64,000 nt of DNA, taken from positions 496,001-560,000 of the forward strand of contig OZ025798.1 of assembly GCA_964019425.1 (NCBI GenBank). The letters run 5' to 3'. This DNA is from Flectonema sp. DT1601. Lineage: Eukaryota. Positions 4,828 through 52,227 of the stretch are shown piece by piece. Below the pieces are notes generated by a model, which saw nothing but the letters and a program-made list of their open reading frames with translations, ran no database searches and was not told where the DNA came from. The position numbers were made by a program, and so were the translations under genes. Within the stretch, counting starts at the first letter, position 1. The number at the start of each line of letters is the position of its first letter.

Positions 4828-7800
4828 TCACACAACAATAATATCATCAGATTTATGTTGTTGTGATTGATGTCTGTTCGCCAGTAGTCGTATTTTTTGA
4901 GGCATTTTCAAAGTGGTATCTGAGTCAGCACTACCTGATCTTGGTTTAACCATACCAGTGTTACTAAGAGCTGCAGCTACACTAGTCATGGTACTTAATC
5001 TCATCTTTATTGGACTTCTTCCACGACTGTGTTTGAAGTGTCCTTTGAGAGCATAAAATAACTTACAAAGTAATCCCGGCACTGACCTACACAGCGCACT
5101 GTAGTGACCAGTTGTTGCGAAACGAGCTTCTTCATTTTCATCTTCCGCAGCGAAATTCATTATCTCTGAGAAGGTGGTTCGGAAATTAGAAGTCGGCCGA
5201 CTATTTCTTCGCATGCTTGGAGATGAGATTTCTTTTTCTAGAGTTGGAAGGTCACTGTCCCAAGTACTACAGGCGTTGTAAACTTTAACAAATCGTTGCA
5301 TAAATTCGTCTTCATTTATTCGCTCATGATTCAGATCATTCTCAACGTGAGAGATGTACATTCTAACCAATGAAAGGGTTAACCTAGAATACCTATGTAA
5401 GACAATGATGTACCGTCTATACTTACGAACAAGGTTTTCTAAATCAGAACTCTCTCGATCATCTGAGATTCTATTTTCTGATGTACTATTCGAGCGAAGA
5501 CTACGAGCGCTTTGTCGTCGTCCCGGACGTTTTCTTGCTCCACTCTGAGATCGTTCTCTAGGGAGGAAACCCGATGATTTTGCCGTCTGTAAAGCCTTCG
5601 TTGTTAAAGTGTCAATCTCTGCTAATGCTTTACTCGCATCTACAATTGATGTTTTGTTTTCACTTCCATTATAAGAACAAGAGATAGCTCTCATACCACT
5701 AAAAGCTGCAGCTAGTAACTGTCGTAGTATGTCAGGTGTTGATGAATTTGATGTTTCTTGATCTGAAGTGACATCAGTTTGATCACCAACAGTTCCAACA
5801 ACATGTTGTCTTGACAATTCAACAAGAGAAGGAGCATTATTGATGCATTCCATTCTAATATCATGGATCTCTAATTCATGTTCTATTTCAGTCTGTAGTG
5901 TTTTCTCAGAACTGTTGCCGTCAAAGATGCTCTCTCTTGGGATTCTGCCAGTCAGAATCTTCGGTAAAATAGAAACAACTGGAGTCGAGAGAGTATTCCC
6001 AGGAAGGTATCTCTCTCCTAGTACAGTTATACTACAATTAGCAGCAAGGTGTGGAAGGATCATTTCTACATCATCAGCGCAGATGAGGATTTGTCCAGGG
6101 ATAGCAATTCCACACAACTGTTGTGACGCTTCCAAAACCGGGTTTTGAGAGTCGTTCGACAACTGTTCTGAAACACTTCCTCCAGAGAGTCCCATTTTAA
6201 GACGAAGACCATTCCAAATATATCGTCCTCCAAGCTGTTTTTTGATTTATTTTATATTTATAAGGCCTAGCTGCGAAAAAAAAGGTGTACCACAAAAGTT
6301 AGGAAACACGAATATGGGAGACTTTCGTTCCCTGAGTTCATTTTAAAATTATCATAGCAGAGAGATGACATCGATGATAAATCATTTGTATTGTTTGATG
6401 AAACACATGGTGATGACATAACAGATAACAAATTAAAAAGTTTAAATTAGGTGCCAAGGTGTCAGATAAACCTGATGAAGTAGTTGTTCAACATTACCTA
6501 ATGTAGAGTAATTGGAAAACAGATGTCAATAAATGATAAGATACGAATATGTGTCATGAGGGGGGTAATGTTTTCCGACGCCCTTCTCTAATTTCGATGA
6601 TATCACAGAACACGAATAACACCCCTCCGAACAAGTTAAAAGTTTTTTTTTAAAAAAAAGAAGACACACACCTGGACAGTCTCTGTATATTCCGTAGTGA
6701 GTAGCGATGGATCCCAATTCACTTCTAATAATCGATGTTGGATATCAAGTGACCACGCAATAGCATGTGAGAGTTCCTCAAATATTAAAGTGAACGTGTT
6801 CCCAGAATGTAATTCAATTCCGTGATGAAGATGTGCAGTCCGCCTGAGAACTTCTTGAAGTTTATTAATAGACGTCTGAACTACTAATTCTGAAATGGTA
6901 TTCCAAACATGTTCGATTCCGTCTATAGTTCCAAACACAATCCATGATAGGGATCCTTGTTCTCTGACTTTTTTAGTTGTTATGAATGATGATGTTTGAA
7001 TTAGGTTTTCTGCTTCTAAATTCTTGTCCAATTCCTGTTGTACTACTTCGATTGCATCACAGCTGGTACAGTTGGTTATCTGTTGTTCTTCTAGTTGTTG
7101 TTGAAGTGGTTTATTAATTTGTATTTTATATTTAAATGTTTTGAAATGATCTAATCTCGATCTCAATACCGTCGGCATCGCCAAGAACAGTTTCTCATCA
7201 AGGAGAGTGCATAGCTCAGGCTGTTCAATATGTATGTCAGATGGAAGCTTTTCACTGATTGACTCAACAACCGCTTCTGTGATAAGCGTTTCACCACCAG
7301 CTGTGTTCATTGCAAGCTGGTGAGATGTTTCCCATAAAGGTGTTTTATACAAACTCTCTGCTTGAAATGTCGGTCTCCTAGGTGAATCTGTCATTTCTTT
7401 CCGAAACTGCTGCCCACAGTGAACGACAATACCAGCCGTCACACCTTTCCACAATAAGATATTATTGCCATCGATTTGTTCATAAGTCTCTCTTTGTATC
7501 GAACTTGGTATGATGTTTTCATGTGTTTTGTACTCCACAAGATCGCTGAGTAGCATTTTGTGAATCTCAGATGAGCATACAACTGCATTTTCAATTTGTG
7601 CAAACACGGCAGAAATAGCGTCTACCTCACTGTGGGTGATTTGACCATGATGTTTTGTGACTAGTTGGGTTGTTAAGGAAGCCATGTTTGTGAATAATTT
7701 AGCTGCATTGTTTTGCATTCCGGTTTCAGATGCCATGTTCCAAATCTCATTAAATTGAGAAAAGTGTAATGTCAAGTACGCGATATTTGCAAGATTCTGT

Positions 7801-9542: not shown

Positions 9543-11141
9543 TCAACGACGTACTTTCTAATGGTGTCGATCCTGACAAAAAAAAAATAGAGTTAGTAGT
9601 AACATCACACAACATCAAGTCCTCTTTTAATTTATAAGAGCTGCATCGGGAGCTAGTTTTTCTGAAGGCTGTGCAGTCTGAAAGTGTTGCAGTGGCAACG
9701 AATAACCTTAGCGAAAGATACAATAGTGTGCAAAAAACTGGATACTGACCAAGATTAAAAATAAAAATAAAGCATAGGAAAGCAAGAATCGAAGAAAAGA
9801 AAAGAAAGAAAAACAAAAAAAAACATGGTCGCTTTTATATTGATCGCCACTCATTAAATATTCCTATTATTTTATTTTTTTTTGTGTGTGTTAAAACTGG
9901 TTTTTGTTAGTTTGAAAGAAAAAAAAAAAAGAGTGCTCCTCATTTTTTTTTTTTTAATTTTAAATTTTTACAGATATCTAATTTACATAATTCATTGATG
10001 TAATCAGCAAAAAAAAAACGACAAGTGGCCAATATTCACCTTAATTTATATTTTTTTTTTTTTTTTTCCCCCGACTAACCATGGAGAAAAAGCAGAAATA
10101 CCGCCTCATTACATTACATTAAATAGACGGAGGACAGGAGGAAAGGAGACTTCTTAACCATTGAACAAAGTTGTTGCTTGCAATAAGCGCTTTTTTTTTT
10201 TTTTGGAAGAAAAAAAAAAAGTGAAAGAGAAAGATTATTTGTTTTGTAAATAAGTCGATAACATTATATTGCGCGGCACTGATACAGCAAGCTAAGGAGG
10301 TCATCAAGTTAACTGTTTAGAGTTTGCAGGTCTCTGATAGGAAACTAAATGAAAGGTTCAATACTCTCTGTGACAATTAAATCAGTATAAGGTTCTCTCG
10401 GAAGATTCCTCATTTGATGGTGAAAGGAAGTACAGAAAATGTTGTTGTTACTGTTGAGCAACATTTAAGTAAAAAATGATAACACAGAAAGTTGTTGCCT
10501 GTCAAACTATCAAAGGAAAACACAGAGCAATTATGATAAAAATTGCAAAGAATAAAATTGATTTTTTTTTTTTTTTTTTTTTTTTTTCCTGAAGTCATTA
10601 TTTGGAAGGTAACCAGCACCTCACTCACAATTATTATAACGCATCTTGTTTTTTTTTTTTTTTTTTTATACGCAACTAGAAAGCCTTAACAAAAAGTAAA
10701 ACTGCTGAACGTTACACGCTGCCACAGTTCTTTTTCGCTCGTAAAACAACATGTTCGGGATGAAAAAAAAAAAGGGGGGGACTTGGATAAATAAACCAAG
10801 GCTTAACACGCAACAAAATAAGGAAGGTGAAATAATTGTTTTTTTTGAAAAAAAAATATTTACAATGATATAAATATATGTATTGCATTGTATCAAAAAG
10901 TTAACTAATTTAAATATTAGTAATTTATGAGACAGTTGACCTAAAGGGAAGGAAGAGGGAACGAAGACAACACAATGCCGTGTAAGAAGAATGCGTCTTC
11001 GGTGACAGTAAATAGCCCTCTGCTTAATCAACTAAAAAGACAGTTAGTACTAATAGTTGTCAGTCAATCAAAAAAAAAATCAAATCAAAAATACGTCGGA
11101 CAACAAATAAATAATAGTTAAAATCAGTTAGCGAAATACAG

Positions 11142-13093: not shown

Positions 13094-13126
<33 letters not shown>

Positions 13127-13591: not shown

Positions 13592-13622
<31 letters not shown>

Positions 13623-17064: not shown

Positions 17065-20000
17065 TCAGAAATCATTGAAATCGGTGTCAGTGTCGGAATC
17101 TGGTTGGTTACGAGAAACTGAAACCAGAGCGTCTATGGCTTCTTGTCCACCAAAATCAGAACATTCGCTCTTGTCTGCTATAGTTTCATTAAGAGGAATA
17201 CCTTTACTGTGAGAAGGACTCTCAATACCTAACAGTAATGTTGAATCAGATATCTTATCTTGTCCTCCTTTTCGATTAGTAACACTCAACACACCAGAAG
17301 AACTGTCATCGTCTTCACACTCTTCTTCTTCAGAGCTGGTTGTAAAGGTGCTGACAACACTGCTGTCGGTTAGTTCAGATTCTGATGAATGTTGTTTGTC
17401 TAATTGACTATTAGAAAGGCATTCTGAAGTTTGTTTAATTTCGTCATCTTGATTCTGATCATCTGAAGTGACGTTCTCAGCTATCGGACCCTCCTCCCGG
17501 TGGGAAGTTGTGTTCTCATCTGCGGGACGCTGTTCTTCAATTAATTTATTTTCATTCATTTCCGAGATGGATGAGACATCAATCGACCTATCAATAACAC
17601 ACTCAGCATCTGATTGAAGAATTGATGGAGAGGTAGCCTCAGGGACGACGTCCTCTGGAATGGACTTGTCCACATCTATTGTGTCAGAAATAATATTTTC
17701 CTTAAGTAGACTAACATCACTCTCCGTACTCTTTTTATCATCAGAGACCAGATTATCATCATCTTGCATAGACTGTTCTACTTCTAGCGTTTCTTTAAGA
17801 GGTGAAGTGATGACGCTATCAACAACGATATCTGACTTATGTGAGGATATTTCTTTATCGATAGCTCCGTGAACACTGTCGATGTCTTTTTCTGAACCCC
17901 TTTCTGGCTTAAGGGGATGTGAAGACGTGTTGTCATCACATTCTCTGGTTGTGTCTGGTTTACATTCTTCTTGTGTTGAATTACTACACTCTTGACCCTT
18001 CTGAGTTATCGGATCTAACACAGGATTAGATAATGAAGTGACTACTCTCTCAATGTTGTCATTCGACAGATGTCTGTTCTGATTTGAGATCAGAGTGTCC
18101 TCTTTTTCTAATTCACACTCGGGAGAAGATTGTTTACGAAGACCGTCTGATGAAGTAGAATTGTTATCATTTTGAATAGGAACCTCTTCGTTAATTTCAA
18201 TTACTTTGTTTGAAATAATTTGATCTTCATGAGTGATGTTTCCGTCTTCAGATTTAATAAAAGTTGTAAGTTGCTGATGACCGCTAATAAGAGTTCCTTC
18301 TTCTGGAGTTAACTTACGGCTTTCCCAGTTTATGGATTGGTCAGGTAGCGAGTTATCAGTACTTGCGATAGGAATTTGAGTATCAGATTTTGAGTTATTT
18401 TCTTGAAGACACTTCTCTGAACTTTGTTCAATGTAAACTTCACTCGTGAGATCGTTATTACTAATTGACTTTTCGATAACTATTTGATGATCAGTAACTT
18501 CATCAACTGACTGTCGGGTAATACGTTTTTCCTCAATTTGATTCTCATTGGGATCGCAATCGATTGTCGGGTAAGTATTCAACTCTTGATTGGTGTGTTC
18601 TGCTACTTCTGAATTTGAATTAGCTTCTTTATTGAAAGACTGTTTCCCCTGAGCTAAAGGTTCATTACTGTTACTCGTCTCCTCTAAGTCGATACGGTCA
18701 GAAGATTGATTCCCTTCAACTAATCCGTCTGGAATATCCTCATCGTGTGTTTGGTCATTCAGTGAATTAATTTGTGTTGTTTTGTTTACTGAAGACTGGT
18801 CTTGATCTTCATCATCACCAGGTATGTTTCTGACTGAGATGTGAGTTACTAATTGATTATCCGAACAACTGACTTCAGCAGGTGTTCCTCTCTCAGTAGT
18901 AATTGGCCCGTCGTGTGTATCATCGACACCACTAGCCTCAGCAGGTGTTCCTCTCTCAGTAGCAATTGGCCCGTCGTGTGTATCATCGACACCACTAGCC
19001 TCAGCAGGTGTTCCTCTCTCAGTAGCAATTGGCCCGTCGTGTGTATCATCGACACCACTAGCCTCAGCAGGTGTTCCTCTCTCAGTAGCAATTGGCCCGT
19101 CGTGTGTATCATCGACACCACTAGCCTCAGCAGGTGTTCCTCTCTCAGTAGTAATTGGCCCGTCGTGTGTATCATCGACACCACTAGCCTCAGCAGGTGT
19201 TCCTCTCTCAGTAGTAGTTGGCCCGTCGTGTGTATCATCGACGCTAGCCTCAGTAGGTGTTCCCCTGCCTGAAGTACTCGGAGTGTGATTTACATTATGA
19301 CACGGTAAGTTAATATCAGAGACTACCTTATCACAGATATCAGTGTTAGGTATTGCAACACGATTTGTTGTTTCTTTGTCTGTGTTAACCGAACAGCTGG
19401 CTTCAGTTGGAGTGCCCCGTCCAGAAGTACTCAGAGAATGATGACTGTCTACTGTTTTATCGCCAATTTCAGCTTCAGTGATGACTTGCAGCTCACTGCT
19501 TATATTTACGAAACAGTTGGCTTCAGTTGGAGTTCTCCTCTCAGAGGAACTCGGAGTGTGTGTAGGATTACAATGTGAGTTTAAATCAACGGGGGATTCA
19601 CAGCCAGTGTCAACCGCATGACAGCTGCGGTCATACAAACTTCGAAGTTTTGGGTTCAAACACTTTTCAGCCAACGATATAATACAACAGCTTCCACATA
19701 TTACAGACTTCCTCGTATTTATTATTAATCTCCGATGGAATCGGATTTGCTGAACTGAAGTGAACGCAGCAACAGAACCAACCAACGAAAAGATTTTTGA
19801 AAGTTGTTTTCTTGACGGACATCTAAGAACCGGACGAGACCTTATAGGCAAGTCAGTTGTTGGTGGTGCTGGACTGCTTAAAGAGGTAGTTGCTTGTGGT
19901 GGTGGTGGTGGTGGCTTTGGTGGTATTTCTGCTTTCTGATTCTTTGCCGGAACTGGATCTCGTTTCTGTTGACGGATTCTGTCTCTGATGATCAATCTGC

Positions 20001-21840: not shown

Positions 21841-22488
21841 TTTTGTTTGTGCGCAACCGGCCCCTCTAACGTCGCTGCTGCGGTACGCTACAGGCAGCAA
21901 CGCCTGAATCGCTTCATTCAATACACGGCTCTCGTGTGTTGATTCCCTTGTGGGCGCGTCCCGCGCTCGTTCAAGGAACGGGCCATAACGGGTGTCCAGC
22001 TTCACGGACATTGCCTCCAAGGCCACCGCGTTGTCGATCGTTGTTCCCCACGTCGTCACGCGGCGAATATCGGTTTTGATCCTCTTGATTCCAGCCCAAT
22101 CGGCCTCATCAATTGATCTTTTCTCGTTGTGTACTTCTTCTTCCTGACAAACAATCTTTGACGGGAGAAGACGATCGCCTTTGCTCATCAGCCAGGCACA
22201 TATTGGACACACCCAATTTGATCGATGTACGAGGAATGGCGCTGCATTCCTCTCCGTGAGCGTCTCATTCAGACACTGCACAGAACAACGGTGCCCGCAT
22301 CTCTTGCAATCGAGCTCATCAACATGAGACTCGTCGCAATTCGGAAAGATGCAAGCATCCTCGAGTGGGTGACACTGCACTTCTGCAGGCCACTCACTCG
22401 CCGTGATTGTGCTCCACTCAACAGTGGAAGGTTCACAATGATATCTCGTAGTAGTCAATTTGTGTATTTTTTGTTTGTGCGCAACCGG
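21841..22488 (-). mobile_element. GC-richer insertion carrying a start-less PHD-finger-like ORF fragment, flanked by a 20-bp direct repeat (putative target-site duplication)
   Basis: ttttgtttgtgcgcaaccgg occurs at 21841..21860 and 22469..22488. The enclosed DNA is visibly more GC-rich than its flanks. ORF 21838..22458 begins at TTG, has no in-frame ATG upstream, and carries CIFPNC..CKRCGHRC...C..WVCPIC. Confidence 0.55.
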
Positions 22489-27815: not shown

Positions 27816-28208
27816 TTTTTATGTTACTTTTATGATAATATGACTGTAGAAAATAAAACAGTAATAATCAAATAGAGTACTTCACGTTAAGAAGCAGCAA
27901 TCCCGTGCAGATAAAGGTTTAAAAAAAGAAAACGATGTTATATTAAAAAAAAGTGTGGTAAGATAATAAAGATTAACACCGTGTAGTTACGAAAAACGGT
28001 GGGGGGGTGAAATCTTTTTGTTCGTACGCTAAATCCGTGAGTGGCCTAACTTTCTTTTTTTTGCTCTTACAAAAAAAAAAAGTTTAACTAGTACTTACAC
28101 TTTTAGAGATCTCTCCTGTCTTTTTCCATGCACATCCACCAGACACCCTACTGCACAAAAGAGTGCAGCTTTCCAGGGTAATTGTCCCTAAATAATCTTT
28201 TATCATTC

Positions 28209-28388
28209 TTACAACCCCAGGTCGGTTCCAACCATCTTCTGACATATGGAGTGGTACCTGGTTTTTTGTTTATTTTTTTTAGTATTGCACCTCATGCCTT
28301 AACGATTATGATATTTAATATAAACCTTATATTTCTTGTCTCAAGGGGAAAACAAATCATGATAAGAAATAACAGATTTTCAATCAAG

Positions 28389-28423
<35 letters not shown>

Positions 28424-30443
28424 CGGTGCTTGTTTTCTTTGAACATAGCCACTGCCAATTTCGGATCTTTTATATTAAGAGCCCTGTACAGGGGACGGGT
28501 AAATTTCATTCTTCCGATTCTCCTTAAGAAGTCTTTCAATAGGTCTTCGTGACCGGTCCATCCAGATCTGTGTATTTATTTATTTACTTTCATTCTTACT
28601 TCTGACAAAAAGAAACATAAATGATAACACATACCGAATACAGTTTTCCAACCATAAGAACAATATCTCGCTGTTGGTAGATGAATTGAACTTATACATG
28701 TGATTTAACTTTGTCAACATTTCAGGGGTGACTTTGTCTTCTGTTGTTGTTGTTGTTGTTGTTTTGCTTATAATACTGTTCCGAGCAAAGGAAAATAATA
28801 ATCATACCAGGTAGTCTATCTAAGAAGCAGCATATTTGAGCGCTAGTCCACCCCTTGATGTCATCTACTGAACAGGAGGCGTCGTTGCCAGATGCCCATT
28901 TTTCAGCTAATTCAACGCAGTTGTCAACTAGTGCGGATTTGAAGTTTGGGATGACAGGGGGCATGCCAGGCTTGTCAAACCAAGCTTTCCAATCGACTGC
29001 TGAGAAGTCAACTTGCCTTCCGTCTTTTGTGAAGTACTCAGTCAGGTGAGTAACCATGTCATTACTTGTAATGGATTGATTTTTAAAAGTTTGAATATAG
29101 TTGTAAAGCCATTTTTCAAACTCTTCTTCGTTTCCGACTACCGTCTGCAGGTGACATACTAAATTAAAACCCTTCTCATACGGAACCGAACTGAACGCAT
29201 CATCTGGATCTACGTTTTCAAGGTTTGGTCTGAGACAAGTGTTCGGATTGTTTTCACCAAGAAGGTTAATTGTTTTCTTCAAAGTGTCCCAACCTCCAAT
29301 CGCATCGAAGTCAAAATACTCTTTTCCATGAACTCGTGACATAATCTTTCTCTGAAGGAACATTGTGAATCCTTCATTTAGATAAAAGTCTTCCCAAGTC
29401 TGAGGAGAAACCAAATTTCCAGTCCAACTGTGAGCTACTTCGTGACAGATGACGTCAGCTAGAGACTTGTCTCCAGTTAATAAAGAAGGAGTCACAAATG
29501 TTAGACAAGGGTTCTCCATACCTCCATAAGGAAACGATCCTGGTAAGCAAACCACGTCATACCTGGTCCACTCATATGGACCGACCAGATCTTCACCAGT
29601 CTTCACGAACCGTTCAGTGTCACTAAAGTCGAAGGCAGCTCTCTCTACGACTTCTGGTTCAGACCAAATAGCGACTCTGTCACTAACATCTGCTTTCTTT
29701 AGATTTCCAACAACAATAGCTACTAAATATGAAGGTATTGGAACTGGTTGATTGAAAGATACAACACGACTATCACCTTCTTCATTATCTCCCTTTAGCA
29801 GGGCAGACATCAATACCTGAAGTGATTTAGGAGCTGCAACCTTTGCTGAATAGGTACTTTTAAACCCTGGTGAATCTTGACAAGGGAAAACGGATCTAGC
29901 GTGAATGCTTTGACATTGAGAAAACAAGTAAGGATGGCTACCTCCATCTGTTTGCTCTTTTGGAAGCCAACAGAGAGCAGAGCAAGACGGCACAGTTTGG
30001 TATGTAATTTGAATCGTGGATGCTTTTCCTGCCTGGAGTGCTGTTGGAGGAGTAATCGTTAAGGCTGAACCAAATGCAACGCTGTTATCTCCAAGTTCGT
30101 ACTTGCTGCTGGCACCATCCACAGTGACTGAGTGGATTTTTAAGTCTCGCGTATCCAACACAACCTTATCAGTGTTCTGAATCACTTCTGCTTTTAATGA
30201 TGCAGTTCCTTGAATTTCTTTCAGATCGAAATCGATTCTCCAATCAAAATCCATGTGTTTCACGACCAAGTCTTGTGTGTTTGCATAAGTATTCGGGTCC
30301 TTAGTCGTCTGTCTCCATGCATACTCAGTCATAGTATCTGTGTAGTATCTCTTAGTTACGCTGAAAACAGTTGTTCTTGGTGAGGAAATACCTTTCGGGA
30401 GGAAGTTAAGTTGAACGCTCGCAACGAATGTCCGCCTCAGCAT
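28209..30443 (-). CDS. LTA4H: Leukotriene A4 hydrolase-like M1 aminopeptidase; 4 exons (30443-28808, 28740-28635, 28567-28424, 28257-28209)
   Basis: GGMEN, HEVAHSWTGNLV, LNEGFT and VPYEKG motifs. Reconstructed downstream exons give NSEILFLW, GRMKFTRPLYR and YHSICQKMVGTDLGL*. The start is ATG 30443 (MLRRTF) or 30332 (MTEYAW). Confidence 0.93.
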
Positions 30444-30820
30444 TTCTGAAGAAAACGATAAAGACGAAAAGATTTGTGAGAATAAAAGAAAAAATAATAA
30501 TAATTTTAAAAAGAAAATCTGAAACCCCTCTTGCATATGAATCCTGTCAGAAAAAAAAAAAAAAAGAAAACTAAACTTTCTATGCAAAGTAAGTACCACA
30601 GTTCTCGCAATGAACCCCCTCTCGAGGATGTAGCGAAGTGTTACAACACTCAAATTATATATTAACATCAATGAATGGGTGTTGGGTGGAGGTACTTACG
30701 AACCGCTAACAAAAAACATTAAATAATGGTATAAAGGAATCACTTACGGAACATATCCGCGTGGAATACCATGTTGTGTACTCAGGTTACTATCTGACGA
30801 TAGTAGTCAACTTTTTTTTT

Positions 30821-34140: not shown

Positions 34141-36296
34141 TTACAGTTCGGGAACAACGACGATGGTCAACACCTTGTCTTTGTACTGTTTGTTGTTTGT
34201 TTGTTTGCTTGTTTGTTTGATTTTTCCTTACACATATTCGTGTTGCTTATAATTAAATGATGAACGAGCGATATCGACTACCTCGGTTTAGTTGTCTGAA
34301 CTACATCTCGCAGTGCTGTTGCCCCACACATCCACAAAGAAGGATTGCGCGGGTTTGATCTGCAAGCTGACAAAGAGAAACACTCACCCCCTCCAACCAC
34401 CCCCTCAGTTCAGTTGTCTGAACTACATCTCGCAGTGCTGTTGCCCCACACATCCACAAGGAAGGATTGCGCGGGTTTGATCTGCAAGCTGACAAAGAGA
34501 AACACTCACCCCTTCCAACCACCCCCTCAGTTCAGTTGTCTGAACTACATCTCGCAGTGCTGTTGCCCCACACATCCACAAGGAAGGATTGCGCGGGTTT
34601 GATCTGCAAGCTGACAAAGAGAAACACTCACCCCCTCCAACCACCCCCTCAGTTCAGTTGTCTGAACTACATCTCGCAGTGCTGTTGCCCCACACATCCA
34701 CAAGGAAGGATTGCGCGGGTTTGATCTGCAAGCTGACAAAGAGAAACTCCTGACCCGAAAAGAAAGAATACATACCTGGGCTTGCAGATGATCAGGTGGT
34801 ACAGCACCTGGCAGTCTGAGAGATGTGGAGAATGATCCCCAACGACCTTCACTCAACTGAACGACTAAATCATTTATAGGACGAGATGGATCTAATGTGT
34901 GTTTTGATAGATATTCAGTGAAGTTTTCAACAACTCTATCTAATGCTGGAGGGTTTGGTAGAGCTGTACCAGAAACAGAGAGTACGTCTCCATGTATGTT
35001 TACTTTACATGTTGTAATATCAAGGTCTGGTATAAATGTTGAGACTATTAAATGATCTCCTCTATGTTTTGCTGAGAATTGTGGAGTTATCTGAATTGTT
35101 TCCCATGTCGACCTATCGCTGAATAGATTCCTCAACATCTTTGACATCTTTACTATCTTCTTACTGTCCTTTTGTTGTTGTTTAGCTTCGAGTTTAGATT
35201 GGTCTGCAGCTTCTTTGATGTTGGCTTTTTCTTCTTCCTGACGTTCGCGTTCGCCTTTGGTAGCGAATCGAAGAACCTCAATACGTCTATTCACCTCATC
35301 AACAGTGTGAAGTAACTTGTGAATGTCTTTAATGTGTTCTCTGGTTTCGTCAGAAGACTTCTTCGAAGCTGCAGATGTTTGCAGCTGTTGCTTAAGCGCC
35401 AACAGATCTTTCATTAAACCTGAAGAGCTGTCTTTGCAAGAAGCTTGAACAGAGTCTAGCTCTGCTTCGTAACTGTTTAAATCTTTTTTAACTTCTTCCC
35501 ATTTTACTTCTGTCGCTTGCATTAGAGATTCAACAGATCTTTTATGTGATGTCACATCAATAATAAATTCACTTTTAGGGTCTTCGACTTCTGGAATGTC
35601 AGACTCCCGCTGTACTTCAGGCTCTTGCTGTACTTCAGGCTCCTGCTGTACTTCAGGTTGCTGTACTTCAGGCTCTTGCTGTACTTCAGGCTCTTCATAT
35701 TTAGGAGAAACTTGCTCTTCGGTGGCTTCCGGTTGATCGGCTTCCTCTGGTTCGACTTCCGTTTCAGACGCTGACAGTTCCAAGACCCCTCTCGTTGCTT
35801 CAGTTAACTTCTCAATAACGGCTGCGTAATTACGAGTAGTTCGAGGTACCCTGGCTGCTATTGCTGTAATATCTCTGGCGATATGTTGTGCGTTTAAAAT
35901 GTGCATACGATCATCGACTATGTCTTCTGTCAAGTCATGGGCGTATCCGGTACTATCTGAAACAGTACTGTGAACAAGCTCACGGATGAACTTATCACGT
36001 TGGTCAACAGGATTGTAGTTTACTGATGATAAAAAGGCAGTGGAATCACCACCTCGTTGGATAAGGATTGGCTCACCATCTCTAGAAACGTGATCGAGGA
36101 TTGCTGCACTGTACTCTGCAGCTTCCCATAATTCAGAGTCAACGTCTTCAAGTTTAAATGCAGGTGTTGCCCATCCCTTTCTAAATCTGATATGATTCCA
36201 GTATCCTAAATAACTCTCTCGGATCAGACTTATAGCTTCTCTTGGTACCTTTCCTCCCTTTGCGCGAAGTTGCTGCTGAAGTCCCCTGCGAAACAT
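34141..36296 (-). CDS. Coiled-coil protein with a C-terminal Hsp20/alpha-crystallin domain; 2 exons (36296-34776, 34185-34141); snoRNA host gene
   Basis: IPDLDITTCKVNIHGDVLSVSG...WGSFSTSLRLP...LQAQ|YKDKVLTIVVVPEL*. Splicing intron 34186..34775 (GTATGT...AAACAG) completes the Hsp20 A-x-y-x-x-x-VLxI motif. MFRRGL start resembles a mitochondrial presequence; EPEVQQ repeats present. Confidence 0.78.
34303..34365 (-). ncRNA. Single-hairpin AGA-box H/ACA-like snoRNA, copy 4 in transcription order
   Basis: UGCAG-AUCAAA-CCCGCGCAAUCC-loop-GGAUGUGUGGG-GCAACAGCA-CUGCG-AGA-UGU. The pocket is complementary to LSU GUUGC[UU]UUUGAUC; 14 nt separate the upper-stem base from AGA. Confidence 0.8.
34425..34487 (-). 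ncRNA. AGA-box H/ACA-like snoRNA, copy 3
   Basis: Same fold and guide as 34303..34365; differs from it only in the apical loop. Confidence 0.8.
34547..34609 (-). ncRNA. AGA-box H/ACA-like snoRNA, copy 2
   Basis: Same fold and guide. Confidence 0.8.
34669..34731 (-). ncRNA. AGA-box H/ACA-like snoRNA, copy 1
   Basis: Same fold and guide. Confidence 0.8.
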
Positions 36297-37371: not shown

Positions 37372-38936
37372 TCAATAGCCTCGTGGTTTCCTGCCATCTT
37401 TTGCAGAAGCACGAATCGCTCCCCTATTAGGTCCATTTCCCTTGCCGTTTCCTTTGCTTCCTTTCCCGCTGTCACGTCCGTGGCCATTCTGTGTTATTTT
37501 AGTTGGATACAGTATTTTAATCACTATTGACATATTTTATTTTTGGATCGTCGTCGTCGAAAGAAACGTGAAAAATAATTATCCATGAGAGTCTTCCCAT
37601 GCATCATAATTCCCCAGAAGACTTTAAGTAAATAAGCCAGAATGAAATCTTCAGCTAACCTGGGCAATGAATACTTATCAGCAAGACGGGGAGATAATTA
37701 GCAGGCTACATGGCTGATAAAAAGGTAATCTGTCCACTGCTGGTTTTGAAGGCAGGCTTGTCAAGACCGTCAGTAGTTAAAATATTTTTTCCAGGATTCA
37801 TATTTGCCAGTTATAAAGGTTAAGTTATAGGAATGACTAACAAGGTAAAAATTTTCACATGTCTTACGACGAAGATCAGATTGAGATAATGCTTCATTAA
37901 ATATTAATAAGCTGAGCATACCTCATAACGGCGACCTTTTCCATGACGATCATCATCCTCTTGAGGCTGAGCAGGTGCGACTTTTGCTGTTACTCTTTGA
38001 ACTGTACGTTTAGGTAAACTGTCATCAGCTTTAAGTCTTTCTTGTTGTTTTTGAATTTCACTTATTGCTTCTTTACGTTGGCAGACCTGAAGTGTGTTCC
38101 ATTCCTCCAGGTAGGCGAGGAGTTGCTTTCTTCGTCGGACAGCCTCAGCGTCTTTCTCGATGTCGGAAAGAGTTTCGGCACGTCTATCTATTGAGTTATC
38201 AAGTGAGTCGAGTTTTTCTTTGAGTCTTCTGTCACGTTCACGTTGTACTTCAGCTTCACCATGAGCACGTTTTTCCATTGCTTTTGTCATAGTAGTAGTT
38301 GGGTTGTGATTGTGGCTGTTACCGTGAGAAGCAGCGTTCCACGCATTGGTATTATTATCTTGTCTGCTCATCTTCACCTTCGTATCGTACGAATATGAGG
38401 TGGAGGGTAGTTGCTGAGTAAAGTCCATTTCTCCATCATCTTCCGCCCATTCAATTGCTGTTTTATTTTTGATAACATGATTCCAGTTACAATAGTATCC
38501 TTATAAAACAATAGTAACATACAGTCTGGGTGATTATCTAATATAGAAGATACAGTCATCTGAGATGTTGAAGGTTGCTGTGGTTGTTGTGCCTCAAGAG
38601 ATTGCTTTGCTTTAGCTTCTTTCTCAGCTCTATGTTCAGCAAGAGACTGAGTTGGTGGAGGTGGAGCAGGTGCGTCATTCCAACTTTTGTTCTGTGGGTT
38701 TGTTTGTTTGTTTGTTTCACTTATTTCATCAAAATTGTCGCACAAAAAAAAAAAAAAAAACATACCCACGCGCTTGCCGGTGGATTCCCAGCCGAAGGAA
38801 CATTGTTTGACTTTGTATTATCGTTGTTAAAGCTGTTTTGCTCGCCGCGGCCCCAAAGCCCCCCCCCGCCTAGACCCCCACCGGAGTCGGGTTTTTTTCT
38901 CGAAGAGTATCCTCCTCCCTTACTTCCATAACCCAT
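37372..38936 (-). CDS. Gly-rich/coiled-coil hypothetical protein; 4 exons (38936-38766, 38691-38523, 38457-37922, 37488-37372)
   Basis: ORFs 38721..38936, 38374..38769 and 37904..38428 join in frame through GTATG...CAG introns (SAW|NKSW; HPD-S|IEWAEDDGEMDF; RYE|NGHGRDSGKG...PRGY*). Confidence 0.75.
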
Positions 38937-39629
38937 TATATTATTATTTACTTTTAGAGTTGGTACCCTACCTTAGTATTTCAGAACTACCGTATCTGTG
39001 CCTGCTGCGATAATAGTTTTGGGCACTGAGTTGTGGAATAAATATATATAATTACATAGTATGAAACAAAGAAAATGCAGACAGCGGGTTCGTAGTCTTG
39101 CTGTGTGAAGAAATTAAATTATAGTTTTGTACAAACAGCTAACACACAGTCCGAAGGTTATGTGAAACTTGTTGTCGGGAGCAACCTGTTATTTTTTATG
39201 TATATCGAAGTATAGAACTTTTTGTCGCAAAAACTTCTCTTTTTTTTTTTCAAACCGCTCTTGTGGCACAGCAAGAAATCTTCACTCACCAACAACAGAA
39301 GTCTCATGCACTTAATTTTATTTTTTCTTTTTTTTTTTTTATACCTTTTATTTGCAAAAATAGACCTGCATACCCAGGGAGCGGGGAAACGAGCTTTTAA
39401 AAAAAAGAAAAAAGGTTATAGAGGAGATGGAAATAAAAATGTGAGAGGAGTATAAAAAAAATATATAAAATTAAAAAGATCCACCGAAGACTCGTTATTG
39501 GTTGCATTTTATTATTTTCTTTCTTTTTCCTTTTGATTTGCGTCTTTCTCTTAACTCTCTTTAGTCAGATCTGCTCAGGAATGGAACTGCCAAAGATTTC
39601 ACAAAAAAGTTAGTTAGTACATGAGATTA

Positions 39630-40636: not shown

Positions 40637-42256
40637 TTATGGGTGGCAGTATGGTTGGTCGAGCTTGAACATAACGGTCTTGACCTGTTTTTTTTTTTTT
40701 TTTTTTTAAATACTCATTTTTGATGACGTTTGTAAAAAATAAAAGAAATCACCACATACCTCAGTGTACAGATCCATTACATATGGTCCGAGCTCTCTGC
40801 CAATACCGGACATCTTGAATCCTCCGAATGGCTGACCGACGTCGAAGGAGTTGTACGTGTTGATCCAAACAGTTCCAGCCTTGATGTCGTCAATGTAACG
40901 GAAGGCCTTTTGGATATCTCTGGTGAAGATACCAGCGGCAAGTCCGTAACAAGTGTCGTTAGCTCTCTTCAATACATCTCCAAAGTCATTGTATGTAAGA
41001 ATCGACATAACAGGTCCAAAGATCTCCTCCTTAGCGATGGTCATGTCATCTTCAACGTCAGTGAAGATAGTTGGCTGAATGAAGTAACCCTTGTCATTTC
41101 CTCTCTTTCCTCCCAAAATGCAGTTAGCACCTTCTTCCTTACCCTTCTTGATGTAACTGTAAACAATGTCGAACTGTTCCTTGCTGACCTGAGGACCCAT
41201 GCTTACGTCATCAAAAGGGTTTCCCTGAGTTCTCTTCTTAGTGGCGGAAACAAGCTTTCTAACGAATTCCTCGTAGACCTTTTCGTGAACGAAGATACGG
41301 GATGAGGCAGTGCAAACCTGACCCTGGTTGAAAAACACACCGACCTGGGCAGCGGCAACAGCGTTGTCAATATCAGCGTCCTCACAGATGATAAGTGGGG
41401 ACTTACCTCCAAGCTCTAGAGAAACGGACTTCAAGTTCGACTCAGCAGCAGCCTTCATAATCAAGTGACCGACAGCAGTGGAACCAGTGAATCCAATCTT
41501 ATCAACATCCATGTGCTTGGCTAATATTCCACCACAGGTTGGTCCGAATCCAGGCAAGATGCTTACGACACCAGGTGGAAATCCAGCGGCGACAATCAAC
41601 TCTCCGAGACGAAGGGCTGTAAGTGGAGTCTGCTCAGCAGGCTTCAAGATCACAGTGCATCCAGCAGCGAGTGCTGGAGCAAGCTTCCATGATGCCATCA
41701 GAAGAGGGAAGTTCCATGGGATGACAGCTGCGCACACACCCTTTGGTTCGTGCTTTGTGAACGACATAAATGGCCCGTCAATTGGACAGGTCTTTCCGTA
41801 GTTCTTGTCAGCGAAACCAGCGTAGTATCTGAAGCACTTGATAACGAGAGCGAGATCAACGTTCTTTGAGTCGTTCAAAGGTTTTCCGTTGTCTAGGGTC
41901 TCGAGGGTAGCGAGCTCTTCCTGGTTCTCTTCGATGAGGTCGGCAAGACGGAGGAGGAGATCTCTTCTTGCTGACGGGTCAGTCTTTCTCCAGGTCAGGA
42001 ACGCCTTTCTGGAGCTGGAAACAGCAATGTTGACATCCTTCTCTCTGGCCTCAGAGACTGATGTGATAACCTCACCAGTTGAAGGGTTAATAGTCTCAAA
42101 GCTTCCTCCCTCAACACCTTCAACCCACTTGTTGTTAATCAACAACTTGGTCTGGAAAGCTCTGTCATTCTTTGATGAATCGCGACCCTTCTTTGAAGAC
42201 AAACGAGGTCTCTTAATCTGATAGTCACACTGGTCGTCACTTGATTCGTAAGTCAT
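40637..42256 (-). CDS. ALDH: Aldehyde dehydrogenase (ALDH1/2 class); 2 exons (42256-40760, 40684-40637)
   Basis: IPWNFP, FTGSTAVG, LELGGKSP, FFNQGQVCTA, EEIFGPV, PFGGFKMSGIGRELG. Splicing gives LYTE|VKTVMFKLDQPYCHP*. Confidence 0.96.
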
Positions 42257-43281
42257 TTTGTTTGTAATTGTTGTAAGATCTGTATGAGAATGATAATTAG
42301 TTTTCGTGAAATTAATTTAAAAATAATAATACTCTCCTTTACTCTGTGTTATTATCTGTTTATATAGAATAATACAAACAACAGTATACAAAAATGTATC
42401 AATGACTGTTAATCCAACAGAATAACATACGAGGGGGAGGAATTACGCACACGCGTTTCGGATATTCGTTTTGTTTTTTTTTATTTTGTTTTTTTTTTTC
42501 TTCTTTTGTTTTTTCCTCCAACCTTCCCTCGCCGCTTTTGAATAGCGAAGTTACGTCTACAACCACTCTGAAGAGAGCTGTGACCAGAATGTGTCCGTGG
42601 AGGGATTGAAAGGGAAAAAAAAAAAAAAGAAGAAAAATAAAATAAAAGCAATAACCGGACCTTAACAACTCCCTGTCGACAATCGACAGAAGAAAAAAAA
42701 CAGAAAAAAAATTAAAAACTGGCGATTTAAAAAACGGGTTAAACAGCTGCCCCGAGATGTATTTTCTCACTTAGTCTAAGAAATAATTCTAACAGTTGTA
42801 AGAAACCGTACCACTACTAATCGCGTTGAGTATTGTTTTTTTTTCCTCAGAGAAATACTAAAACAGTATTTCAAAAAACAAAACAAAAACAAAAAGAATC
42901 GAACGTGCGCCATTGACCAACCCAACAATGTTGAGGACGCGCAAGAGTTCGATACTTTTGTCTTTTTTTTTTTTTTTTCCCACCTTTTTTTGTTTTATCA
43001 TCACCTCCCACAACTGCCTGTTGCGCGAAGCAATATTCAAGTTAAAAAATATCACAAACATGACTTGACATAACGACAAACAAACAATAAAGAGGCCCGA
43101 CTTGGAGTTATGCTTATAAGTCAGGCACATGATTGTACTGTCGAAAAGTCTTTCGGATTTATATAAAAAAAAAATAAAAAAACTGAAAAAGGGAACAAAA
43201 AAAAAATGGGGGGGAAAAGAACACGCGGCAGCACTAACAAATCAGCAGAGCAATCTCTTAGCACATAAGAATTCGACCACA

Positions 43282-43326: not shown

Positions 43327-45568
43327 CTATTTAAGCAATTTCATTAAAGCATCGCGTACAATGGTGTACCCGTTAACCGTAAGAATCGATTCCGGATGGA
43401 ATTGGAACGAAATCCAGTGATCACCTTGAGTCGAGAGCATGTCCTCTCCATCAATAGCACAATCAACAATGCCAGACTTAGCGGCAATTTGTTCATTATA
43501 TTTTGCATAGAAAGCGTTATAAAATCCCACTAATTGCTGATCGCCATACAAGGAAACATCCTTTTGAACACCTTGAGTTGGAATGTCTTTGTGAATAATC
43601 TCAAACCCTAAATAATGAGATAAGACCTGATGACCAAGACAAACAGCTAAGAATGGTTTCTTTGTATCTAAAAGTGAAGTGACGTATGATCGAACCTTTC
43701 CCATTTTATTATCTGGTCGTGAAGTGTCAGTTGGGTCTCCAGGTCCTGGTCCTACTACACAACAATCAGCTTCTTCGATTGCCTGTTTTTTTTTTTTTTT
43801 TTTTTTTTTTTTCAAAGAGTTATGCTATATCCTAAAATACACCAAAGTGAAATGAGAGCTATGACGGGTTACCCACCTTTATGAAGCTGCACAACGAATA
43901 GATTGGACACTGAACAGGTGCGTTAGTATCTAGTCTAAATCAAAAGCGAGACTGAGCAGAGAGCTAAAAATAGGATTTCCAACGAGCCAAAGAACGGAAT
44001 TGATAAGATCTGCGGAGGGCGATAGTGACGCAATTGTGAGGCTGACGTCGAAGTGGCCGAGGGTGACAGTGTCGTGAACGAGGCTGAATGGAGTCTGCTA
44101 ATTCAGGGCAGATTCTAAAGTGAAATGATAAGTTACATACCTTTTGTGCGGCTTCAGATGACAGCTCAAAGAAGTTGAAAACGGTAACCTCACAACCCAT
44201 ACGCTCAAGTATGTGACGAAGCATAAAAATAAAATCATCTTCATTGTTTGACATAACAATCTTTTTACCTCTTAAATTCTGATCTGAACAATCTACCTGA
44301 TTATCCATCCAAAATCTTGAAGTGTTTTTATTACGACGTAGTAAGGCAGATTGGACTAGTTCATTCTCACTGCAGGATAGTGTAGTGTACGGCTTTGGTG
44401 TTTTTAATGCTGAAACAGCTCCACGAATCTTTGCATTACACTCCTCGTACTCTTCTGTAGGAATGCTGTCTTTAACTAAAGTGGCACCAACTCTAATAGA
44501 GAAATCACCAGTTGGTTTTATTTCTAATGTACGAATGGTGATACTGCTGTCTAAGAATTCATCTAGGCTGTCATTTGCGTCCCTTCCGATTAAAACTATT
44601 GCACTGCTGTAGTATGATCTACTACGTTGCTCATATTTTGCTACCACCTTACAAGCATTACCAACAGGGCTACCAATCACTGTAGGCGCGTACATAGATT
44701 TTCTTAAAAGTGAGATTATGTCTTCTCCTGGGCTGGGGGTTCCCTCTAAGAGGTACTCAGTGTGTACTAAATGAGCCATTTCTTTTAGTAGTGGACCGAT
44801 GATTCTTCCTCCTGCTCCGCACATGGTTGACATCATTTTCAATTCCTCATCTGTGACCATGAATAGTTCGTTGGTTTCTTTTTGATTTCCAAGGAATTTA
44901 ATTAGTTCCGTAGTATTTTGTTCTGCTGAAACCGAATGATCCTTTCTGAAGGTGCCAGATATTGGATTCATGAACGCTTTGTTGTTACGAACTTCCAAAT
45001 GACGTTCAGGGGAAGCTCCGATAAAGTACTGCGTTCCATCAAAAAATAAAAATTTCCAATAGCAGCCGTATTCGTGTAAGATCAGTCTGTTAAAGATTGA
45101 TAGCGCAGACGTGTCTGAAAAAGCTGTTATCTTACCCATGCACTTTCGGGGGGTGACGAATGAAGAGCCCTCACCATTACTAATCTCATCTTCAATAATT
45201 CGTCGGATAATTTCACAGTACTCTTCTTTGGTTCGATCGTATTCCATTTCCCCATCCATTTGGACGTCTTCAGGAGTGAATTTAGTACGAAATTCATCTT
45301 CTGTAATAATTTTTTGCTCTTTGATCTTCATCGTTATAATTTTTTCACCTTCGTTTACCGTCTCGTAAAGATTAGATCCCTTGCTGCACCGTTCCTTAAT
45401 GGTTGAGAACGGCAACATACTAACTGTGTCGTATGTTAGACTACTAGCCGCATCTGACACTCTCGGAATATCAGCCATTTTATCACAATGGATTATCTCA
45501 CCAGTCAGTTGAAGAAGAGTCTTGTCACGAGTACCGTCCTCACTCTGAATGAATACGTATGGCTGCAT
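43327..45568 (-). CDS. phzE: PhzE-type fused chorismate aminase (TrpE-like MST domain plus TrpG glutamine amidotransferase); 2 exons (45568-44141, 43782-43327)
   Basis: FIGASPERH, MNPISGTFR, ELFMVTDEELKMM, GPLLKEMAHLVHTEY, APTVIGSP, LDSSITIRT, VGATLVKDS. GATase: GPGPGDP, AVCLGHQ, FQFHPES. Intron 43783..44140 joins AQK|AIEEAD in frame. Confidence 0.85.
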
Positions 45569-46123
45569 TTTGTTTTGTCTTTTTTTTTTTTTTTTTTTTT
45601 TTTTTTCTTCTCTTATAGGATCTGAAAAGGAAAAAAAAAATGATATAACTTTCAACCAATCAGAAAAAAAAATGGATAACAGAGTGCTACCGTTGCAGTA
45701 CATTTTCGGCGAAGACGGACCACCGCAGTACTGTCAGAGAAGTTCAAAAAAAAAGAAAAAATTTACTAACATTTAGAAAGACAAAGATATAAAAGACTAA
45801 CACAAAAAGGGAGGTTTGCGGGATCTTTTGGGAAAATTGAGAAAAGGCAACAAAAACAAAAAAAAAAACAAAAAAAAAAAAACAATACAGAAAAAGAACA
45901 AGCTCATTTCCTTTTAAGCAAACGTTTAGTAACGTACAGCAGCAAGGAAGTCTCTATTTTAAATTTAAAAAAAAAAAAAAAATAGGAGAAAGAAAAAAAA
46001 AGAAGGGAAAAAAAAAAAACATAACATAAGTACAAATAAACATAAGGTTAAAGTCACAGTTGAGGTTAATACCACCCTTATGAGTAAACATAAAGCATCT
46101 CAAACACAACAATAGAAGAAGCT

Positions 46124-48792: not shown

Positions 48793-50376
48793 TTATGATT
48801 CTTCGGTGTCAGTAATGGACCTGTAGCGAATCTTTTGTCCTGCTGGTAACAATGACTGCGTAGCTAGCTGACTTATAGGACAGGTTGACATGATGAGTTG
48901 TTTTATCGTCTCAGAATTTACATCCTCCCGTGGGATACCTCCAAAGCTGCGTAGCCCCTGATCAAAGATACTAAATGAAGTTAGCAAGTCTTCATTGACA
49001 ACAGATGCTTCACGTTCTTCAGTATCTGTTGTGTTATCCGCTTCATTGTCGATTGTTTCGGCTGCGAGGTCTTCGGCAGTCCACTGTTTTGAGATGTTTT
49101 ATAGCGAATAGTGGTACCATAGAAAGGAGTTAGTTTAGATTTGTGCGCATATGATGCATGATATGAATTACAAGAAAATTTATAAAAAAAAAAGGGAAAT
49201 ACCTCCTCTTGGATCTCTTTGATCTTATCTTCCTTTTCCTTTTTGCGAGTTTCAGCAGCCTCGGCAATTTCATCTTCTGTTAGACCTGTTTGTTTTTTTT
49301 TTGTTTTTTTTGTGACAAGACAACGACTCACAATGAAGACTGTGACTCAAACCTTGATCATCTTCCTTCCAGGTTAGTTCCATGGATTCGATTAGCTCCT
49401 TCAATAAGATATCTCTGTTTTCTGTTTTTTGACGTTTTAGGTTGCTGCGAGTCTTCTCGCGTTCCTCATGAGCCTTTCTTTTTGTTGCTTGTCTAAGTAG
49501 TTTTCCAGAATGTTTGGTTAGTCCAGATAAGATTTCCTCACCAGCTTTTAATGTTATCCACTCTCGGAACATTTCACCGATGAATGGTTGCTGCCAGTGA
49601 TCAGTCTTTAAAGAATCGGTTAAACGTTTGAGTGAAACTTTAACTGGTATCGCGAAAGGCTTTATTTCTGTCTTCTCTTTAGTAACTGTTTCCTTGACAG
49701 TCTTTTTAACAATTTTAGTAGTTGTGGTTGGCTCACCTCCTTCCTCTGTTGCTGGAACTTCTTCTTCGACTTCTTCTTCAATTTCCTTGTCGACTTCCAG
49801 TGTTTCTGTTGTAGTAGTTGACCAACGTTGTTGTGATACCTCATACGATGCATTAGATTCCCAAAGCATTGGAATGACGTAAACAGTTTTGGTACCATTG
49901 CTGGAAAAAGTTGCAAATTTTATCCAGTTGCTTGTCTCAAGTCCAGACAGGTCAAGGTTTGCTTGGCTCGACAAGTATCGTCTGGCAGCATTTAACTGAG
50001 TCTCGAAGTCATCGGTGTCCTCACCGTCAACGTCAGAATCAACAAATCCACCAAAGAAAGCATTCTTTGATCCTCCTGGTTTTGTCATCACTACTTGACA
50101 TGTGTGAATCATAAAGCGAGTTGATACCTTTGGGAGTCGGAGTAGAATCACTCTTATCTCAACATCACTTTCTTCTCCGTGAGTGATTTCTGAATTTTGA
50201 GGTTCTTGTTCTTTAGTGTTTAAGTTTAAATTAGAAGACCCTGTCCAAGGCAGTCTATCGACATCAATCCAGTCAGCTGAAATCGATCTTAAGTTTTCAT
50301 CAATTTCTAAGGTTGGGTATCTGGCCATGAGTTCAGATACCGTTCTGAGTTTCGTATTAACGTCGAACCTCATCAT
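48793..50376 (-). CDS. DBC1/CCAR1-like protein; 3 exons (50376-49353, 49285-49203, 49083-48793)
   Basis: ELMARYPTL..W and FFGGFVDSDVDGED...AARRYLSSQANLDLS..WIKF resemble the DBC1 domain. Introns 49286..49352 and 49084..49202 join the ORFs in frame (DDQG|LTEDE; IQEE|WTAED). Confidence 0.7.
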
Positions 50377-50821: not shown

Positions 50822-52227
50822 CTAACATCTTGTGAAGACAGCGGCGGCACCCATACCGGTACCAATGCACATGGAGACTACACCAGTGTTCTTACCTGTG
50901 TCCTGAAGATGGTTCAACAAGGTAACGGTGGCACGAGTTCCAGTGCATCCCAGAGGGTGACCAAGAGCGATGGCTCCACCAAGTGGGTTAACCTTGGTCT
51001 CATCAAGTCCAAGCTTGTCCATGCAGTACACGGCCTGGGAAGCAAACGCCTCGTTAAGTTCGAAGGCATCGACATCGTTCTTGGAAATTCCGACCCTGTT
51101 TGGTTTTTACTTTGATGACGACAGCAATCTTTAATGAGGTCCATAAATAATAAAAACACATACTGCTCAAGAACAGCTGGGATGGCGAAGGCTGGTCCAA
51201 CTCCCATCACCTTTGGTGGAACTCCCTTTACGGCGAATCCACGGAAGACTCCAAGGATCTGTTTGTTGTTCGGTTTGGGTTACGAGAAACATGAAAAGAA
51301 TAACAACCAACTACCCCTATCACTTAAATAGTATAAAATGCATACAGGAAGACCCTTCTCGGCGGCGGTGGATCTCTTGCACATGATGACAGCGGCAGCT
51401 CCGTCAGTGGTCTGGGAGGAGTTTCCGGCGTGGGAGCATCCATCGGCAGCGAATGAAGGCTTCAACTTCTGGAGACCCTCAAGGGTGGTGGCACGTGGAC
51501 CTTCGTCCTTGGAGACGGTGACCTTAACAGTCTTACCTTCAGCGTTCTTTACCTTAACGGTGATTGGAGTGATCTCCTTGTCGAACTTTCCGTTCTGTTG
51601 AGCAGCAAGAGCCTTCTGGTAAGACTTAAGAGCGAACTTGTCCTGAACCTCACGGGTGATTCCGTAGGCCTTGGCAACGTTCTCTGAAGTAACACCCATA
51701 GGGGTGAGACAGTCACGAACAAGTTGGGATTCTCCAAGACGTCCTGAAAGATCACCGATCTTTGGTGGTCCCTTCTTGGCACCAGCGGTCATGGATTCAA
51801 CTCCAGCAGCGACACCGACCTTGATGAATCCAGCGTTGATTGCAGCGGCAGTGTGGGCGATGGTCTGAAGACCACTGCTGCACTGTCTGTTAACAGAGTG
51901 AACTGATGACTCCTGTGGAAGACCAGCCAACAACATAGCAAGTCTTCCCTGAAGGGCACCAGCACCGTCCATACCAACGTTTCCAACTGCAACATCATCG
52001 ATGTCAGCTGGCTTTACTCCGGCACGTTCAACAGCGGCCTTGATACAAACAGCCAACATATCAGCACAAGCGGTGTCCTTCATGGCACCCTTTCTTGCCT
52101 TGGTCATTGGAGTTCTTGCTCCGGAGACGATAACAATGTCATCTCCACTTGCTGCCTTACATGGGGAGGCTCTCTTCATCTCTGGGACACCCATGGCAAG
52201 GGTCTGAAGTCTGTTAAGGGAAGTCAT
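50822..52227 (-). CDS. ACAA1: 3-ketoacyl-CoA thiolase (peroxisomal ACAA1/POT1 type); 3 exons (52227-51346, 51258-51164, 51095-50822)
   Basis: VNRQCSSGLQ, AGNSSQTTDGAAA, MGVGPAFAIP, FELNEAFASQA, NPLGGAIALGHPLGCTG, VSMCIGTGMGAA. Confidence 0.94.

Follow-up and report, generated by a model that had tools for sequence, protein, structure and literature searches.

Among the cis-splicing systems described so far, the closest to the one considered here is that of the Diplonemidae, whose introns have GTATG donors and carry a YTRAY branch motif in 2-16% of cases, in hosts that possess U2AF1/2, according to the available part of Thakur et al. 2025 (PMC12621601). In the same part of that paper, RNA-seq shows that A is the commonest base of the acceptor tract in Diplonema japonicum and that Lacrimia lanifica and Rhynchopus humris have a weak form of this A tract, so that the A-rich acceptor itself is already published for D. 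japonicum. The terms "outron", "spliced leader" and "Flectonema" are absent from its main text, which holds no analysis of spliced leader (SL) sites, and the part available mentions neither a U tract on the donor side, nor the bypass of decoys, nor a bias in intron position. Another diplonemid, D. papillatum, has unidirectional gene clusters and SL trans-splicing of essentially all its mRNAs (PMC10161547, available part). The literature searched, which included few subscription papers, contained no comparison of cis and SL acceptors for diplonemids. Here, we analyzed a stretch of 64,000 nucleotides (nt) from Flectonema sp. DT1601 (contig OZ025798.1, positions 496,001 to 560,000; hereafter the window). 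Its 14 predicted cis-introns have A-rich acceptor tracts and a U-rich stretch after the donor, and those that contain pyrimidine-rich AG decoys bypass them.

All 14 introns lie on the minus strand and run from GT to CAG, with a GTATG donor in 11 of them, and their splicing preserves the reading frame in the eight genes concerned. The sequence features expected of U2-type introns (GT donor, YAG acceptor, where Y is a pyrimidine, and restored frame) were therefore found in 14/14. The acceptor tracts (positions -23 to -4) consist of 71.4% A, 16.4% C, 9.6% T and 2.5% G, compared to 28% A and 36% T for 229 CAGs located between genes (Mann-Whitney test, p = 9e-10 for A and 6e-8 for T). At least 50% A was found in every one of them although the sense strand is T-skewed, and 12 have at least 10 A and at most four T among 20 positions, a composition shared by 4.4% of the background. 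With 26% pyrimidine and 71% A, this tract does not correspond to the polypyrimidine tract of classical 3′ splice sites, and YTRAY is present in the final 60 nt of only two introns, which does not amount to a branch consensus. The AG-free zone before the acceptor has a median of 32.5 nt versus 20 (p = 0.011). All 14 A-rich CAGs located inside introns (5.2/kb) are used acceptors, and the density of such CAGs elsewhere is 0.37/kb in intergenic DNA and 0.29/kb in coding sequences. The original prediction described all these acceptors as A-rich and U-poor. The first term holds throughout, and the A27, A20 and T29 tracts that it quoted are present, but the second is too strict, since two tracts contain 25-30% T. 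Overall, both the introns and the A-richness of their ends are real and represent the published diplonemid trait in a further lineage.

The donor side also departs from background. Positions +7 to +26 contain 60% T compared to 39% at 1586 intergenic GTs (p = 1e-5), in agreement with the U-rich tract that had been noticed there, and the best U window begins at +6 to +14 from the donor in 11 of the 14 introns regardless of their length, including three introns of more than 400 nt. Furthermore, seven introns contain 54 internal YAGs, 14 of which follow at least 14 pyrimidines among 20 positions. Among all candidate sites of an intron with decoys, the one used ranks first in A content in 6/7 introns and first in pyrimidine content in 0/7. 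The clearest cases of bypass are those of the PhzE-like intron (43783..44140), which skips eight listed pyrimidine-rich YAG decoys, and of the cyclase-like intron (6235..6671), which skips a polyY-CAG at 6271. A single 122-nt repeat, present in several copies, accounts for four of the listed decoys and two others are only 32-33 nt from the donor, and the number of independent decoy cases is therefore lower. This tandem repeat (34281-34747, about four copies with 98-99% identity) occupies most of the intron located at 34186-34775 and repeats its polyY-CAG decoys. The 14 introns are the following:

6235..6671, minus strand: intron of the cyclase-like gene (class III cyclase-like domains); 437 nt, GTGTG donor, A-rich CAG; top of 180 alternatives against 17 homologous domains
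28258..28423, minus strand: LTA4H intron 3; 166 nt, T29 after the donor; top of 30 alternatives
28568..28634, minus strand: LTA4H intron 2; 67 nt; top of 69 alternatives
28741..28807, minus strand: LTA4H intron 1; 67 nt, (AAC)n acceptor tract; top of 48 alternatives
34186..34775, minus strand: intron located late in the gene that starts at 36296; 590 nt; frame only, in a part without Pfam match
37489..37921, minus strand: intron 3 of the gene starting at 38936, whose function is unassigned; 433 nt; frame only
38458..38522, minus strand: intron 2 of the gene starting at 38936; 65 nt; frame only
38692..38765, minus strand: intron 1 of the gene starting at 38936; 74 nt, T17 after the donor, (AAAC)n acceptor; frame only
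40685..40759, minus strand: ALDH intron; 75 nt, A20-CAG; frame, and a Pfam Aldedh match that reaches the junction
43783..44140, minus strand: PhzE-like intron; 358 nt, A27-CAG; exons consecutive on 3r74
49084..49202, minus strand: intron 2 of the DBC1-domain gene; 119 nt, GTATT donor; frame only
49286..49352, minus strand: intron 1 of the DBC1-domain gene; 67 nt, GTTTG donor; frame only
51096..51163, minus strand: thiolase intron 2; 68 nt; top of 41 alternatives
51259..51345, minus strand: thiolase intron 1; 87 nt; top of 52 alternatives

Their placement was assessed by comparison with homologues, every GT/GC-AG pair close to a junction being ranked without regard to base composition. The sites listed above came first in the six introns tested, among 30-180 alternatives; for the cyclase-like intron, the listed pair tops 180 alternatives and the three best pairs all use the acceptor at 6235. 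The PhzE-like exons align to consecutive stretches of 3r74 (residues 42-475 and 487-631), and since 17 residues are unaligned at the junction versus 11, this match does not fix the exact position of the intron. For thiolase intron 1, the read-through open reading frame (ORF) P0131 of a relative departs from the alignment at the identical column and, for LTA4H intron 1, the read-through ORF P0010 of a relative does so near the same place, which suggests that these intron positions are old. Metagenome scans gave two close thiolase relatives among the best 80 of 322 loci, both being intron-less mRNA-like contigs, and no confirmed LTA4H relative among 183 pattern matches. No homologue of the DBC1-domain gene was found in the length range searched, and three exon pieces had no Pfam match at E<=1. 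The last exon at 34185 has a possibly HSP20-like look; Pfam gave nothing for it at this threshold.

Candidate SL-addition sites were sought near 19 start codons with four mechanical acceptor rules, each compared to 2000 control draws. The pyrimidine content before the nearest AG is 54% versus 52% in the control (p = 0.36), that before the nearest YAG (18 of the 19 starts) is 61% versus 55% (p = 0.07), that before the nearest CAG (16 of the 19, within 160 nt) is 63% versus 55% (p = 0.017) and that before the best-pyrimidine YAG is 68% versus 66% (p = 0.25). For the nearest CAG, T reaches 46% compared to 36% in the control (p = 0.0065), and G falls to 7% compared to 19%, a value as low as this being found in 0/2000 controls. 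G depletion was obtained under all four rules (p <= 0.002). Within 60 nt of the starts, enrichment concerns CAG (14 versus 8 per kb, p = 0.03) but not TAG. Mixed A/U tracts precede about half of the CAGs near starts. The earlier description of the AGs upstream of start codons as mostly pyrimidine-rich is thus too strong: the nearest CAG leans towards pyrimidine, the nearest AG does not, and only 6/16 of these CAGs reach 70% pyrimidine. The four examples quoted in its support exist but all rank among the top five for U content. Overall, the start-proximal class is G-poor, modestly U-rich and not A-dominated, and the cis class is the outlier. The candidate SL acceptors of five genes are:

45622..45644, minus strand: PhzE-like gene, U-rich CAG, 53 nt before the ATG; from sequence only
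9573..9595, minus strand: cyclase-like gene, U-rich CAG; likewise
27844..27866, minus strand: PWWP-TrmO gene, U-rich CAG; likewise
30446..30468, minus strand: LTA4H, U-rich CAG, 2 nt before the ATG at 30443; likewise
52264..52286, minus strand: thiolase, mixed A/U and G-poor CAG, 36 nt before the ATG

The related thiolase mRNAs L001 and L002 have a common 24-nt 5′ prefix followed by 36 and 31 nt, respectively, before the ATG; we take this prefix to be an SL tail. The LTA4H gene has three in-frame ATGs (30536, 30443 and 30332, within 30332-30545, minus strand), and a separate CAG precedes each of them. Depending on the SL site used, the protein could gain or lose an N-terminal extension that may be a targeting peptide.

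We consider it somewhat probable that the 14 introns are spliced by a U2-type mechanism in which a G-free A- or AC-rich tract replaces the polypyrimidine tract, the likely SL sites being G-poor and U-leaning. U1 would bind the GTATG donor, and the adjacent U tract would help to commit the intron, either as a displaced site for U2AF65 or by way of a helper protein of the TIA-1/Nam8 type. The branch would form at one upstream A without consensus, and the first CAG past the G-free stretch would become the acceptor. Elements of this scheme have precedents. In the available parts of the sources, Trypanosoma brucei is described as forming the branch at any A without consensus and as leaving unused many polypyrimidine tracts of its untranslated regions (UTRs; PMC9639853). 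Pyrimidine tracts are located upstream of the branch in Schizosaccharomyces pombe (PMC8624252); displaced pyrimidine or polyT tracts are reported from this species, other fungi and amoebozoa, with TIA1/Nam8 named as polyT binders (PMC8624252, PMC2483917). Since purines in the tract are deleterious to trans-splicing in T. brucei (PMC9639853, available part), the true cis acceptor, with its A tract, is likely poorly suited to SL addition. Because polyY-AGs persist inside the introns, the choice between cis- and trans-splicing probably depends at least equally on the upstream U1-bound donor. The A tract could thus shield the true acceptor, and the silencing of decoys would fall to other factors.

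Several points weigh against this scheme. The introns and SL sites of this organism are predicted here from DNA sequence, and the reading frame alone supports 7/14 introns. The SL sites are conjectural, and some of the CAGs near starts may instead end 5′-UTR introns. In the 1140 nt that lie up to 60 nt from starts, 12 CAGs are G-poor and not A-rich, compared to 29 in 26154 nt elsewhere; this contrast favours the scheme, but the threshold that defines them (G <= 1) was set after the earlier start-proximal result, and the region before the ATG is itself G-poor (10-12% G). Lastly, the number of A minus that of T ranges from 5 to 20 at cis sites and from -13 to +4 at start-proximal sites, a gap that closes (value 5) if LTA4H starts at 30332, the later ATG at which its homologues begin.

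The original prediction proposed a two-code system that would exclude the SL from genes. In its strict form, polyY-AG would serve only for SL addition and A-rich CAG only for cis-splicing, with separate tract-binding factors. The cis and start-proximal sites do differ in A content (p = 4e-6), decoys are skipped in all seven introns that have any, and a selective pressure exists, since SL addition at cis acceptors occurs in kinetoplastids (PMC11613528, available part). However, polyY-YAGs are denser in introns (6.0/kb, 16 in 2673 nt) than between genes (3.85/kb, 105 in 27294 nt) or in coding DNA (1.2/kb), although the repeat copies and the two donor-close decoys mentioned above qualify this count. 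Therefore, a polyY-AG cannot by itself be the SL signal that genes exclude: if it were enough for SL addition, the introns found here would be cleaved. Moreover, the scarcity of start-proximal CAGs with at least 70% pyrimidine and the failure of the best-pyrimidine rule to exceed its control, both reported above, do not fit with polyY-AG as the SL signal. The difference between the two classes and the bypass of decoys thus remain from this proposal, whose strict form we consider unlikely; a contrast between cis and trans acceptors is plausible and partly supported.

At the opposite end, a G-free unstructured stretch before CAG could be the sole signal for both reactions, with A or U reflecting a compositional habit of the lineage, in a genome rich in homopolymers, without any role in the cis/trans choice. 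G is indeed depleted in both site classes (2.5% and 7%), runs of at least 10 A or 10 T are common between genes (52 and 65, respectively), diplonemid tracts vary from C-rich in most species to A-rich in D. japonicum (PMC12621601, available part) and, in Euglena, introns and outrons have one common C-rich tract (PMC11170887, available part). This explanation is nevertheless improbable: the cis tracts are all A-rich on a T-skewed strand, no CAG follows any of the 52 A runs between genes, and pyrimidine-rich decoys with low G are bypassed.

The idea that the 5′ U tract and the 3′ A tract might pair and bring the intron ends together was part of the same prediction and failed every test. Such a bridge would replace U2AF2, as the (GT)n and (AC)m repeats do in zebrafish. 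The tract polarity is compatible with such pairing, 2/9 short introns exceed at least 97% of their own shuffles in end-pairing and the zebrafish precedent exists (PMC4691745, available part), but the lengths of T runs and A runs do not covary (rho -0.12, p = 0.69). The ends of one intron have no advantage in pairing over swapped ones (-5.22 versus -5.24 kcal/mol, p = 0.49) and intergenic 30-mers pair more strongly (-6.5); none of nine combinations of windows and subsets was significant (p 0.24-0.81). Furthermore, end duplexes weaken with intron length (rho 0.76, p = 0.002), so that the long introns, which most need a bridge, pair worst. The intron-specific stable end-pairing of structure-bridged introns (zebrafish AC/GT introns, euglenid nonconventional introns) was thus not found here, and we regard such pairing as very improbable. 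That only A-rich-looking introns were chosen, ordinary-tract in-frame introns being hidden in poorly conserved ORFs, is hardly credible, since several long ORFs without Pfam match could hold stop-free introns with a length multiple of three but the composition-blind exhaustive ranking recovers the same sites (6/6) and the trait has RNA-seq support in D. japonicum (PMC12621601, available part).

The introns are also unevenly distributed along the coding sequences (CDSs): 12 of the 14 are located in the final third (binomial p = 8e-5, introns not being independent), and the first intron already lies there in 7/8 genes (p = 0.003). Intron-poor genomes usually retain 5′ introns. No report of a 3′ bias of introns was located in the literature searched, within the limits given above. 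Two candidate 5′-UTR introns (42344-42430, minus strand, upstream of ALDH, and 39186-39373, minus strand, upstream of the gene starting at 38936) run from GTATG to an A-rich CAG and would qualify this bias.

Beyond the A-tract splicing preferred above, we tentatively raise the possibility that some Diplonemidae have split the 3′ code, with A tracts for cis-splicing, free of pyrimidine recognition by U2AF65, and U tracts for SL addition, the introns being confined to the 3′ part of the CDS, away from SL sites. If this were true, an intron-rich polycistronic genome would avoid the products that trypanosomatids generate by SL addition at cis acceptors; in Leishmania, SL-exon 2 transcripts are reported for all three intron-bearing genes (PMC11613528, available part). 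The separation of cis from SL acceptors by one spliceosome has been little studied. Acceptors are alike in Euglena, and the SL is added at cis acceptors in trypanosomatids; a diplonemid whose two classes differ in base composition would be a clean natural test, and RNA-seq and draft genomes of D. japonicum already exist. A difference in tract composition could help to explain how one splicing machine distinguishes the two reactions.

The DNA of the window comes from a diplonemid, a marine flagellate, of a Flectonema-related lineage, a placement drawn from one gene tree: in a 15-row single-gene tree, the LTA4H proteins of the window and of Flectonema neradi group as sisters (100/99). Identity reaches 80% with F. 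neradi and 68% with D. japonicum (EukProt transcript proteins), which led to the rejection of D. japonicum as the source, and D. papillatum is the top named match of an LTA4H exon (57%). The minus strand carries every long Pfam-matching ORF, as one unidirectional cluster, and an Rfam scan of the window gave no match. The catalogue records for the LTA4H, thiolase, DBC1-domain and cyclase-like genes of the window are intron read-throughs; an A-rich acceptor violates the assumptions of gene prediction. The PhzE-type fusion (43327-45568, minus strand) combines chorismate-binding and glutamine amidotransferase domains, with 3r74 as best PDB match, and holds a spliceosomal-type intron; the gene is possibly of bacterial origin. 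A PWWP domain is fused to the N-terminal domain of TrmO (tRNA methyltransferase) at 26640-27815 (minus strand). A GC-rich, Cys/His-rich ORF without nearby ATG (21838-22497, minus strand) has a 20-nt direct repeat at its two borders (22488 and 21860) and is possibly a mobile or duplicated fragment. A long ORF without introns (1-4411, minus strand) extends past the window edge, has a HExxH motif and may encode a leishmanolysin-type peptidase. Lastly, a 63-nt coding tandem repeat (18793-19296) lies inside a low-complexity ORF of 1040 amino acids.

Compared to known systems, as these are described in the available parts of the papers cited, the introns of the window are most like those of D. japonicum, with which they share the GTATG donor, the A-dominated tract, the CAG, the rarity of YTRAY, CA-rich motifs and a host belonging to the Diplonemidae. 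They differ from the introns of the six species studied in PMC12621601 by their Flectonema-related lineage and by their length (65-590 nt compared to a median of 41 nt). Like Euglena gracilis (Gao et al. 2024, PMC11170887), this diplonemid combines many cis-introns with SL trans-splicing, a CAG acceptor and an unusual tract; however, the cis and trans acceptors of E. gracilis have the same C-rich tract, whereas the two classes appear to differ here. With trypanosomatids (PMC9639853, PMC11613528), the window shares the unidirectional cluster, the lack of branch consensus and a U-leaning AG near starts, but trypanosomatids have few cis-introns, with polypyrimidine tracts and SL-exon 2 products, whereas the cis acceptors found here are A-rich. 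Fungal and amoebozoan introns (PMC8624252, PMC2483917) also have a pyrimidine or polyT tract off the acceptor, upstream of the branch region; these sources discuss no contrast with SL sites, and the U tract found here stays close to the donor even when the intron exceeds 400 nt. Finally, the (AC)m-(GT)n introns of zebrafish (Lin et al. 2016, PMC4691745) have a similar AC-rich 3′ end and U/GU-rich 5′ end, but in zebrafish these ends co-occur and form very stable hairpins, whereas pairing in the window is weak and not specific to introns.

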